Part shown: positions 11,052-13,542 of the stretch, piece after piece
Layout of the letters: the number at the start of each line of letters is the position of its first letter
How positions within the stretch are numbered: position 1 is the first letter of the stretch
Virus record (IMG/VR): IMGVR_UViG_2690315994_000027
Coordinates: 1-13,542 of that record
Length of the DNA: 13,542 bases
Origin: a virus
Taxonomy: Duplodnaviria; Heunggongvirae; Uroviricota; Caudoviricetes
Strand: one strand, 5' to 3'
Program-made: the position numbers and the translations under genes
The notes under the pieces: model-generated
What the model was told of the DNA's origin: nothing
Seen by the model: only the letters and a program-made list of their open reading frames with translations
The model's database searches: none

Positions 11052-11813
11052 ATGGAGACTGTTTTTGACGCACTGAAAGCAATGGGAAAAGCCACATCCA
11101 TAGAACTTGCTGCGCGACTTGATATCAGTCGGGAAGAAGTGCTGAACGAACTATGGGAACTGAAAAAGGCTGGTTTTGTTGATAAAAGCGCGTACACCTG
11201 GCGTGTGGCTGATAACAACGTTCAGCAGGAACAGCCAGCGCAGGCAGAACTGCCGGAAGAAACCACCACAGCAACAGTAGCGAAAATCTCAGAGTGCGAT
11301 TTAACCGCGACGATTGAACAACGCGGACCACAAACGGCTGATGAGCTGGCTACATTGTTTGGTACCACATCACGCAAAGTGGCTTCAACGCTGGCAATGG
11401 CAATCAGCAAAGGTCGTCTGATTCGCGTAAATCAGGGCGGTAAATTTCGTTACTGCATACCGGGCGATAATTTACCAGCAGAGCCGAAAGCGGCATCGGT
11501 AGCGGAAACTGATGGTAAAGCCTTTCCTCAGCCTGCATGTGTTGCGTTACCAGTACAGGAAGCTGCAACACAGGAAGATATTAAAACAGAAACTGTGGCG
11601 GACATTGTGCAGTCGCTGCCATCGTTCACCGAAACGCGATCGGATGACCTGATTTTACCATCGCTGCATATGGCAAACCGCGAACTGCGTCGGGCGAAAA
11701 GTCATGTCCAGAAGTGGGAGCGAGTCTGCGCCGCGCTGCGGGAGCTGAACAAGTACCGGGATATTGTCCGACAGATTGTAGATTCCTCCAGTCGTATTGT
11801 GTCGGAAAAGTGA
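11052..11813 (+). CDS. Hypothetical protein with two winged-helix-like segments (YdaW-like position)
   Basis: ATG at 11052 with GGGAG upstream (the track start at 11001 overlaps the DnaC-like gene); segments ...[29 protein letters not shown]... and ...[30 protein letters not shown]... look like wHTH recognition helices. Confidence 0.65.
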
Positions 11814-11828
11814 TTGCCGGAGGCGCTT

Positions 11829-12251
11829 ATGGCAAAAGTATTTACACCAAAAGATCGGGAAAAAATTAAAGGGCAGGTTGTTGAACTTGTACGTCTGAGC
11901 GGTCGCGAGACGTTACGGGCTCTGGAGGCTAAAACCGGTGCATCAAGGTATTACATAAGCACTCTCGCCAGAGAATTGGTCGCCAGTGGTGATGTTTACA
12001 ATTCAGGCTACGGATTATTCCCGTCTGAGCAGGCGCGTAAAGACTGGCAAAACGCCCGCAAAAAACTATCAAGGGCAAAGGTGAAGAAACCGGTTGTGGT
12101 TGATCCTGACCTTATCTGGTCATTACCAGACGGAGAAATACGTCGTTACAACAGACGACAGAACATAATCTGTCGCGAGTGCCGGAATAGTGAGGTTATG
12201 CAGCGAGTGCTGGCGTTTTATCAGGGGAGTTTTCAGGAGGTGGTGCTGTGA
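11829..12251 (+). CDS. Hypothetical protein, 140 aa, with an N-terminal winged-helix-like segment
   Basis: ATG at 11829 with GGAGG 5 nt upstream (the track start at 11814 is a non-ATG codon directly after the upstream stop); ...ETLRALEAKTGASRYYISTLARELVASGDV... Confidence 0.65.
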   Translation: MAKVFTPKDREKIKGQVVELVRLSGRETLRALEAKTGASRYYISTLARELVASGDVYNSGYGLFPSEQARKDWQNARKKLSRAKVKKPVVVDPDLIWSLPDGEIRRYNRRQNIICRECRNSEVMQRVLAFYQGSFQEVVL

Positions 12252-12308
12252 GTGAAATTAGCTATCAGGCTTCAATTGCCGCTGGCATTCGCATCAAAGG
12301 AGAGGTGC

Positions 12309-12665
12309 ATGGAAATAAAACCAGAAGATGAGTTAAGTAATATTGTTTTATTTCCGGTAAAAGAGGATGACCCACGTAATCAGGTTAATTTTCTTTATGA
12401 GCCATCGGAAAGACCATACTGCCATCACGCTTCTGTCCGGGTTGACGAAAAAGAGCGTCAGGTCCGCTGTAAAATCTGCGGTGCAGTTGTGGAGCCATTT
12501 GACTGGATGCTCTCTGTGGCGAAAAGAGAAACCAGGCTGGCAGATGATGTAAAACTATTGCGCCAGGAGGAACAGGAAAGGCGAAAAAATATAGAAAAGC
12601 TAATTCAGATTGAGCGTAACGCGAAAGCGCGGATACGCAGGGCGACAAAAGCCAGAACTGAATAA
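12309..12665 (+). CDS. Hypothetical zinc-ribbon protein with a basic coiled-coil-like tail, 118 aa
   Basis: ATG at 12309 with AAGGAGAGG upstream; C-H-H...C-x2-C cluster (PYCHHASVRVDEKERQVRCKICG) and a K/R/E-rich C-terminus. Confidence 0.65.
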   Translation: MEIKPEDELSNIVLFPVKEDDPRNQVNFLYEPSERPYCHHASVRVDEKERQVRCKICGAVVEPFDWMLSVAKRETRLADDVKLLRQEEQERRKNIEKLIQIERNAKARIRRATKARTE

Positions 12666-12760
12666 TTAAATTTAGCACTGCAAATAAAATTTAATCCTTA
12701 ACCGGAGGGATTTCTGCATCCTCAGAACATCAGGAGGCCGCCCGAAAGGGCGGTAGTTAA

Positions 12761-12943
12761 ATGTGAAAGTTTAAAATAATTATTGAAACGGGAATAGCCG
12801 GTGGAGATTTCGAGGATGAATTCGAAGTGGATGATGATGCGACGCCTGATGAAATATATGACGAAGCAAAAGATATTTTCTTTAACTACTGCAATTACTC
12901 ATATCACGAAATAAAAGACGAAGAGGAAGAACAAAATGGCTGA
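12761..12943 (+). pseudogene. Acidic small ORF with ATG-TGA at codons 1-2 (start-stop), then 58 sense codons in frame; possible nonsense pseudogene or non-canonical initiation
   Basis: SD AGGAGG 12732-12737, GNRA-loop hairpin CCGCCC-GAAA-GGGCGG 12738-12753, ATG 12761, TGA 12764; in-frame continuation KFKIIIETGIAGGDFEDEFEVDDDATPDEIYDEAKDIFFNYCNYSYHEIKDEEEEQNG ends at TGA 12941-12943, overlapping the next ATG (ATGGCTGA). Confidence 0.35.
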
Positions 12944-13112
12944 TTTTGGTTCAACTAAATACAACGTCAGTTTTGAAGAATGGCATGAACTGTTAATGGA
13001 CTATGCAGAGTTACGTGGTGGCAGTGCTGCTGATGCTGAAGCATGGCGTGATGATTATGAAGCAGGAAAAACTCCGGTCGAAGCATATTGTGATGAGTGG
13101 GGCGATGAATGA
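12936..13112 (+). CDS. Hypothetical small acidic protein, 58 aa, not in the supplied ORF track (<60 aa)
   Basis: Hand translation MADFGSTKYNVSFEEWHELLMDYAELRGGSAADAEAWRDDYEAGKTPVEAYCDEWGDE; GAGGAAG 6 nt upstream; stop overlaps the next gene start (ATGA). Confidence 0.5.
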   Translation: MADFGSTKYNVSFEEWHELLMDYAELRGGSAADAEAWRDDYEAGKTPVEAYCDEWGDE

Positions 13113-13468
13113 GCGAGATTAATTATCAGGAAGGGCATGAAAAGGCAGGGCAGGCAAAACCAGTGGCATGGCGATATCGCTACGTGAAAAAAGGCGTTAC
13201 GGACTTTCAGGAGAAGATGTGGGTTGGTGACTGGAAATATGTACCGACAAAAGAGGATTGTAACGACAGGCCGAACTATGAAATTCAGGCGTTATTCACT
13301 GCCCCGCCTGTGCCACTGACACCAGAAGGATTGATTAAAGCAGTGCGCTTCTATGAACTGGTTAAGCGTGAGAATCCGCCAGTTGAAACCGGAGCATGGA
13401 AAGACGCTGTTGACTGGGTGCTCAAAGAGGCTTGCCAGGCTGTAAACATTGGCATCAAAGGAGAGTGA
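13109..13468 (+). CDS. Hypothetical protein, 119 aa
   Basis: ATGA-coupled to the upstream small ORF; no recognised motif. Confidence 0.65.
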   Translation: MSEINYQEGHEKAGQAKPVAWRYRYVKKGVTDFQEKMWVGDWKYVPTKEDCNDRPNYEIQALFTAPPVPLTPEGLIKAVRFYELVKRENPPVETGAWKDAVDWVLKEACQAVNIGIKGE

Positions 13469-13470
13469 GA

Positions 13471-13542
13471 ATGCAAATTTCACCGGTTACTCTTCGTGTT
13501 GCGAAGGCGTTTATATCCAGACATCACCGACACAATAAACCC
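13471..13542 (+). CDS. Hypothetical protein, 5' fragment only (runs off the window end)
   Basis: ATG at 13471 with AAGGAG 7 nt upstream; MQISPVTLRVAKAFISRHHRHNKP...; truncated by the window. Confidence 0.4.
   Translation, partial: MQISPVTLRVAKAFISRHHRHNKP

Follow-up and report, generated by a model that had tools for sequence, protein, structure and literature searches.

An ATG that is followed at once by TGA, with 58 further open codons behind it, stands out in the 13,542-nt stretch of viral DNA analysed here (the window). As far as comparisons with related sequences indicate, the stop at codon 2 is very probably a rare but ordinary C>T nonsense allele of a catalogued small prophage gene, whose product belongs to the DUF7167 family. 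A regulatory start-stop, programmed recoding and a sequencing error are each unlikely to account for it. The Shine-Dalgarno (SD)-hairpin-ATG layout upstream of the stop is a property of the intact gene and not of the start-stop, and its possible role in initiation can be discussed separately from the mutation.

An earlier, sequence-only reading of this DNA had described the layout SD-hairpin-ATG-TGA, and its coordinates are accurate (Table 1). In the linear sequence, the AGGAGG is located 23 nt 5' of the ATG, and the hairpin abuts it directly. The perfect 6-bp GNRA-loop hairpin that had been claimed is indeed present: six perfect G-C pairs (12738-12743 with 12748-12753) enclose a GAAA loop (12744-12747), with a predicted stability of -15.5 kcal/mol for the isolated element, and a seventh pair, a G.U between 12737 and 12754, is possible. 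The intergenic leader measures 95 nt and begins after the TAA of the upstream gene, for which PGAP calls a shorter form in relatives, corresponding to window positions 12309-12665. The spacer between hairpin and start codon ends in an in-frame TAA (12758-12760) directly before the ATG; therefore, no 5' extension of the DUF7167 frame is possible. Behind the codon-2 TGA (12764-12766), the frame comprises 58 open codons (12767-12940) and is closed by a TGA (12941-12943) that overlaps the ATG of the next ORF (ATGGCTGA). The deduced 58-residue peptide is very acidic (D+E = 20 versus K+R = 4), again as described. The exception is the claimed lack of any in-frame ATG, GTG or TTG after the TGA, which is wrong: a GTG opens a 38-codon ORF in this frame.

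Table 1. Features of the DUF7167 start region and its flanks in window coordinates.
Feature	Position	Strand	Basis or remark
Upstream gene, hypothetical, weak zinc-ribbon-like match; TAA at 12663-12665	12252..12665	+	profile match
Leader 5' part (AATCCTTAACCGGAGGGAT...CCTCAGAACATC)	12693..12731	+	conserved before different genes
Orphan second GGAGG	12704-12708	+	inside conserved leader 5' part
Anti-SD-like CCTC	12720-12723	+	inside conserved leader 5' part
SD AGGAGG	12732..12737	+	GGAG invariant among aligned leader haplotypes
Hairpin CCGCCC-GAAA-GGGCGG between SD and start codon	12738..12753	+	folding, leader comparison
A/T-rich 7-nt spacer TAGTTAA, hairpin base to ATG	12754..12760	+	
ATG (12761-12763) of DUF7167 gene and mutant codon 2 TGA	12761..12766	+	alignments, allele counts
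Rest of DUF7167 CDS, codons 3-60 and stop, no canonical start at its 5' end	12767..12943	+	
In-frame GTG, Val22 of the intact protein; 38-aa fragment	12827..12829	+	ORF list
GAGG of the next gene, 9 nt before its ATG	12923-12926	+	
Next gene, 58 aa, hypothetical; ATG overlaps DUF7167 stop	12936..13112	+	WP_000753060.1 in relatives

The interrupted frame can be assigned to a known family. With codon 2 restored to Arg, the translated product matches PF23768 (DUF7167) at 54.2 bits (E = 1.5e-14), well above the gathering threshold of 24.4 bits and over profile positions 1-60 of 60, and the earlier impression that the frame is gene-like rather than a product of chance is confirmed by this match. 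A megablast search with window 12600-13120 against 5,426 complete Escherichia coli genomes gave hits in 2,614 of them, and most full-length matches are annotated as 'DUF7167 family protein' at exactly this position. In strains 2-331 and 100248, the CDS is annotated from the same ATG and begins ATG CGA AAG TTT... (MRKFKIIIETGIAGGDFEDEFEVDDDATP...); the intact DUF7167 product of the relatives has 60 residues and starts with MRKFKIIIETG. Arg2 is nearly invariant in the family, and the homologues from Klebsiella phages read ATG CGT. The flanking genes and the leader of the window locus match those of three further loci (L002, L003 and L019, the last from phage ArgO145), and the unnamed ORF of Stx2a phages and of phage ArgO145 is the intact counterpart of the window gene. 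The DNA of the intact lambdoid DUF7167 genes (WP_001224662.1 and WP_001224665.1 in E. coli) is 97-98% identical to the window, and they share with it the leader, the gene length, the reading frame and the neighbours, namely a DUF977 gene, a zinc-ribbon-like hypothetical gene and the 58-aa gene that overlaps by ATGGCTGA. They differ at codon 2, where CGA stands in place of the TGA that interrupts the ORF of the window. Because of this interruption, the window gene is to be regarded as a pseudogene or null allele of DUF7167 and not as an intact member of the family.

The T at 12764 replaces an ancestral C, which turned codon 2 from CGA (Arg) into TGA by a single C>T change; CGA is among the few sense codons that are one transition away from a stop. 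Allele frequencies were obtained with 55-mer queries that carry the variable base at position 28, such that every 28-nt megablast seed spans that base. With the same flanks, the CGA allele is present in 1,053 of the 5,426 complete E. coli genomes and the TGA allele in one, that of strain 12089, in which PGAP leaves the DUF7167 gene unannotated. A scan of viral contigs that used the hairpin-free 5' part of the leader as its anchor contributed 120 contigs; together with loci fetched earlier and after removal of duplicate strain-12089 loci, 132 leader copies were available, among which no TGA was found other than in the window's own copy. The exact intact ancestor haplotype (P0075, with Tyr33) occurs on 58 contigs, as a DUF7167 family protein. 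Within 12690-12950, the window differs from strain 2-331 at three positions (12719, 12764 and 12857), all of them C>T on the coding strand, the last one changing His33 to Tyr; the three differences are consistent with a deamination bias on the non-template strand. Among the options offered by the sequence-only reading, a recent nonsense mutation was the correct kind of event, with the qualification that the ancestral codon is CGA (Arg) and not TGG, as had been suggested. In the alignment with homologous prophage regions, the relatives have the sense codon CGA at codon 2, and because an intact sense codon is retained there, the window carries a simple, rare nonsense allele, the outcome that the sequence-only reading had itself named as refuting its proposal.

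The leader in front of this allele has a much wider distribution than the stop. About 65 nt (window 12693-12755; loci L013-L019 and L023-L142) recur in lambdoid prophages, where at least eight unrelated gene classes follow, including DUF4014 genes, a gene for a 135-aa protein and one for a 65-aa protein. As one leader is combined with different genes, the alignments of many BLAST matches stop at the hairpin or close to it. Phage ArgO145 carries the leader twice, approximately 1 kb apart (~470-501 and 1501-1568 of L019). Phage vB_EcoM-Ro157c2YLVW (L020 601-869) has the leader in two halves that flank an additional 70-aa gene (629-841), which uses the first GGAGG as its SD and has the hairpin half behind it; in ArgO145, this 70-aa gene is found in front of DUF7167. 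In the light of the split in L020, the window leader looks like a composite joint, and it may be the scar of a deleted cassette, judging from the arrangement of these loci. Within the E. coli lineage, the leader hardly varies, and it is absent from the Klebsiella phage homologues, in which the DUF7167 start overlaps the upstream stop.

Folding calculations predict that the hairpin is a robust element: in isolation, it attains a z-score of -3.5 versus dinucleotide shuffles, and in a 165-nt context, the probability of its six G-C pairs is ~1.0. The CCUC located 10 nt 5' of the SD pairs with the GAGG of the SD (12733-12736) in the minimum free energy structure, but not in the centroid, and in the structure ensemble, the SD is partly paired with this upstream CCUC; the conserved CCUC could provide a weak alternative structure that occludes the SD. 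Exact stem and loop are found in 84 of the 132 leader copies, and the variants are for the most part C>U changes after which a G.U pair is retained. Such changes affect the 5' arm at four positions (42 copies), compared to one haplotype with a G>A change in the 3' arm. The excess in the 5' arm could result from a C>T mutation bias on the coding strand instead of selection for pairing. Covariation is not significant, 94.8% of the cells being paired in the 33 unique haplotypes versus 94.6% in shuffles, and a single compensatory change of the stem, G-C to A-U, is seen in this set.

A stable hairpin at this position would most likely loop out 16 nt and place the AGGAGG effectively ~7 nt from the ATG. 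Whether the hairpin bridges the SD to the start codon in this way, forming a 'split' ribosome-binding site, appears evenly balanced on the basis of the sequence comparisons and of the analogy to phage T4 discussed below. The distances from the hairpin base to the start codon, grouped by gene class according to the first residues of the products across the 132 leader copies, amount to 7 nt for DUF7167 (MRKFKI), 6 nt for MKHYLE, MVTLFR and MTTLFR, 8 nt for MLTLKH, 9 nt for MTELTK, MAELTK and MQDIKE and 11 nt for MGITKE, a class with a separate GGAG behind the hairpin. In most gene classes, the spacers are rich in A and T and devoid of GGAG. Among the 33 unique aligned leader haplotypes, which were chosen for having an NGGAGN motif, the GGAG is invariant, whereas the last base of the SD varies (G, A or T). 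A stem-to-ATG spacing of 6-9 nt and an invariant GGAG in front of unrelated genes are as a role in ribosome binding predicts. The 3' arm of the hairpin (GGCGGU) is itself an imperfect SD-like sequence with one mismatch, 6 nt from the ATG. The earlier suggestion that the hairpin brings the SD near the ATG is plausible and fits the conserved leader, although covariation does not rise above that of the shuffles.

Alternatively, the hairpin could be a different RNA signal (boxB/nut-like, an mRNA-stabilising or processing element or a weak terminator) or a recombination joint of cassettes, an explanation that we consider unlikely. The resemblance to lambda boxB (GCCCUGAAAAAGGGC) speaks for it, as do the position of this GAAA-loop GC stem at a mosaic boundary, the use of the leader before many different genes and twice in phage ArgO145, and the BLAST matches of many relatives that break at or near the hairpin; in addition, covariation gives no proof of a translational role. 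Against it, unrelated genes have in common a GGAG that directly precedes the stem without variation and a constant distance of 6-9 nt from stem to ATG, as a role in ribosome binding predicts; furthermore, the hairpin has no U-tract and is located ~5 kb downstream of the immunity region, not next to an early promoter. A scan of 12400-13100 against Rfam at E <= 1 gave no match, and a promoter and terminator scan of 12200-13200 returned one weak minus-strand promoter match and no terminator-like site, which argues against the hairpin as an intrinsic terminator. The window contains no second copy of the hairpin, which disfavours a nut-like pair of sites; taken together, the lack of an Rfam family, of a terminator call and of a second copy in the window makes terminator and nut-like roles less likely. 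A literature search retrieved no paper containing the hairpin sequence.

If the hairpin does bridge the SD to the start codon, the 65-nt leader (AATCCTTAACCGGAGGGAT...CAGGAGG-CCGCCCGAAAGGGCGG-TA) might, more tentatively, be seen as a portable initiation cassette of lambdoid phages, in which the GAAA-loop hairpin would connect a strong SD with any start codon that recombination places 6-9 nt behind it; it would be a counterpart of the bridged sites of T4 genes 38 and 25 and also a preferred joint for cassette swapping. The strong site of the TGA allele would then act as a dead-end ribosome sink.

For the TGA allele, the following sequence of events can be proposed: ribosomes would load at the normal site, start at the ATG and terminate at once, and the remainder of the gene would become an untranslated remnant. 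The allele would thus be null or at best very leaky (strongly hypomorphic), a young pseudogene and not a regulatory device, and the DUF7167 protein would presumably be lost, as deduced from the sequence. Strong polarity on the next gene is not expected because this gene is preceded by a GAGG of its own, at 9 nt from the start, and because the stretch left untranslated is short and has a low C content (12.6%); a stretch of this kind is a poor Rho substrate, and the 58-aa downstream gene would presumably be little affected. Some translation of the remnant may persist through UGA read-through (the UGA being followed by A) or through weak initiation at the GTG or at near-cognate AUA/AUU codons (12776-12782). 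The latter are not preceded by an SD. The GTG, the only canonical in-frame start after the TGA, has a GAGG 11 nt upstream (12812-12815), and a predicted local hairpin of 8 bp (12807-12828; AUUUCGAG...UUCGAAGU) covers both, which would disfavour internal initiation. The AlphaFold model (AF2) of an intact member is of moderate confidence (pLDDT 78.6) and features a beta-beta-alpha-beta arrangement with a short C-terminal helix; because strand 1 is formed by residues 2-9 in this model, a product that starts at the GTG (Val22) would be predicted to lack two of the three strands.

A useful, near-full-length product could in principle be made by recoding, i.e. if the UGA were read through (with Trp inserted by a near-cognate tRNA), decoded as selenocysteine or bypassed by a GUG start and a +1 slip, for which we see only a small chance. 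Of the stop codons in E. coli, UGA is the most prone to leak, and UGA-A is a weak context, but neither read-through nor slippage would be expected to occur spontaneously above the per-cent to per-mille level, and the low-level read-through to be expected here would be incidental. The mutation creates an AUGUG motif (in the 12761-12774 region), the overlapping GUG frame of which has three codons (GUG AAA GUU UAA), and motifs of this type can support initiation in two frames (PMC9841429). Ribosomes that start at this GUG and slip by +1 on AAA-G would return to the DUF7167 frame and make MKFKIII..., a purely hypothetical event. The UGA is not conserved, and read-through as a programmed event, which the sequence-only reading had listed, finds no support. 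A SECIS-like hairpin is not predicted after the UGA, where the sequence is A/U-rich and has no stable adjacent hairpin in the 165-nt fold context, and a frameshift-stimulating element is not evident at the AUGUG site.

A functional AUG-UGA start-stop that holds or recycles ribosomes, followed by reinitiation at the GTG (38 aa) or at the ATG at 12936, is highly improbable. The strong SD and the stable hairpin before the AUG-UGA would suit such an element, as would the in-frame GTG with a GAGG 11 nt upstream and the start of the next gene within the same transcript. The arrangement is not conserved, however: one genome has TGA compared to 1,053 with CGA, and the other DUF7167-type leaders on viral contigs have CGA or another sense arrangement, which leaves the regulatory start-stop considered earlier without support. 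Moreover, the GTG is no more than the codon for Val22 in the intact gene, the 38-aa product would lack two of three strands in the model, the GTG and its GAGG lie in a predicted hairpin, and the identical block of 1.57 kb that is shared with strain 12089 points to a very young allele.

A sequencing or assembly error, with C as the true base at 12764 and an intact gene, had also been considered and is very unlikely, indeed scarcely credible. In its favour, the T is found in only one of 5,426 complete genomes, and no type of error is simpler than the exchange of one base. Against it, window 11818-13542 (1,725 nt), TGA included, is matched at 100% identity by the Logan assembly of SRR19123138, the 38-aa product is also called on two further contigs, and strain 12089 has the T in its complete genome, in a prophage that is ~2% different elsewhere; in addition, the position is outside homopolymers and Dam/Dcm motifs, as read from the sequence. 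In total, the 38-aa ORF starting at the GTG is called on three contigs that were assembled independently from public read sets.

The comparison with strain 12089 (NZ_CP159875.1) also informs on the age of the allele. Its prophage is ~98% identical to the window overall, the ends of the window having no match in this record, and over 11795-13367 (1,573 nt), a block that includes the TGA, the two agree without a single difference, whereas they are unrelated from 13368 onward. At this position, the homology stops abruptly inside a 119-aa gene (13109-13468), which constitutes an intragenic recombination breakpoint. The TGA allele is no assembly artefact, for it recurs in independent assemblies and in mosaic prophages of at least two backgrounds, and the zero differences over the shared 1.57 kb argue for a young allele and for recent common descent rather than selective maintenance; nothing in the comparisons made suggests selection that maintains it. 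With its two mosaic backgrounds, the allele has spread or persisted a little. Parts of the 521-nt query match the 5.8-Mb genome of strain 12089 at eight separate sites; accordingly, the leader, paralogous genes or both are present in several of its lambdoid prophages.

The window represents a Rac-type lambdoid prophage next to yebY, with the DUF7167 gene as part of its early-right operon, and the region includes recE, recT, ralR, kil, a ydaT-like gene and DUF1627/DUF977 genes. The integrase region of the window is broken up into two ORFs on the minus strand that overlap each other (2064 to 1777 and 1811 to 735), and the integrase of the related prophage in strain 12089 is annotated as frameshifted by PGAP; on these grounds, the prophage of the window is probably defective. 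Decay of the DUF7167 gene is not restricted to the window. An internal TAA is found in E. coli WP7-S17-ESBL-04 (L004 1604-1786; 'internal stop' according to PGAP), the start is lost by ATG>ATA in phage Rac (MN652886), a frameshifted 46-aa form (P0060) is present on 107 contigs, and a start-loss form (P0003) exists as well. The gene is often inactivated in E. coli prophages, where ATG>AGG and several frameshifted forms were observed in addition; the decayed copies listed comprise L004 1604-1786, L008 ~401, P0060, P0003, P0065 and P0069. DUF7167 seems dispensable in lysogens. As in the window, a single small lesion inactivates the gene in a resident prophage in these cases; unlike in the window, the lesion is located elsewhere, whereas the lesion at codon 2 of the window gives rise to the ATG-TGA appearance. 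Two records with non-Escherichia hosts, PP818812.1 (Actinobacillus phage vB_Apl-pPE4) and a metagenome-assembled genome labelled Collinsella sp. (L005), carry the E. coli lambdoid segment at 93-98% identity, for which a mis-assigned host, contamination or mis-binning is the likely explanation.

As to the function of DUF7167, Foldseek searches with the model revealed nothing significant in the PDB (best E = 1.6) or in BFVD (best E = 0.04, uncharacterised proteins), and no paper mentioning DUF7167 was found in the literature. A likeness to small acidic phage inhibitors (p56, Gp2) was not significant and is not relied on. A scan of genome contigs with the single protein gave only three loci. Distant homologues (40-50% identity) occur in Klebsiella Guernseyvirinae phages (L011, L012) and in Enterococcus phages (H59-H75), where they are encoded immediately upstream of exonuclease or PD-(D/E)XK genes. 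This gene order makes a functional link of DUF7167 to recombination or nuclease genes possible and can serve only as a lead.

The eye-catching combination of a start-stop and a startless ORF amounts to the pseudogenisation of a catalogued gene by a single base and carries little biological weight; the feature is real but ordinary. Annotators would best enter the locus as a DUF7167 pseudogene that contains an internal stop, instead of leaving it blank or calling a 38-aa ORF. The leader that is common to unrelated lambdoid accessory genes offers a cheap test system for hairpin-bridged sites outside T4 and also for asking why mosaic joints fall at that place.

Two known systems lend themselves to comparison. 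Start-stop (AUG-stop) regulatory elements have been described for eukaryotic 5' UTRs. The arrangement in the window differs from these elements: it is not conserved, it is found inside a gene that has a sense codon there in the relatives, and what follows downstream is not a main ORF with a start of its own but codons 3-60 of the same gene. The closer parallel concerns the intact gene. In phage T4, genes 38 and 25 are proven cases of hairpin-bridged sites (Nivinskas et al. 1999; Malys and Nivinskas 2009; reviewed in PMC3014915), and the hairpin cuts the spacing from 22 to 5 nt for gene 38 and from 27 to 11 nt for gene 25 (PMC3014915). In both systems, the SD is too far from the start codon in the linear sequence (22 and 27 nt in T4, 23 nt in the window), and the stem-loop leaves a short effective spacing (5 and 11 nt in T4, ~7 nt in the window, where it is predicted only). 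With the predicted structure, the window falls within the T4-type range, i.e. a linear distance of more than ~15 nt and an effective distance of 5-11 nt. Sequence, phage group and genes are unrelated, and the role of the hairpin is proven in T4, whereas it is deduced for the window. The lambdoid leader would hence be at most a new example of a known mechanism; in contrast to the T4 sites, for which no such sharing is described, it is a cassette at a mosaic junction that is common to many different downstream genes.
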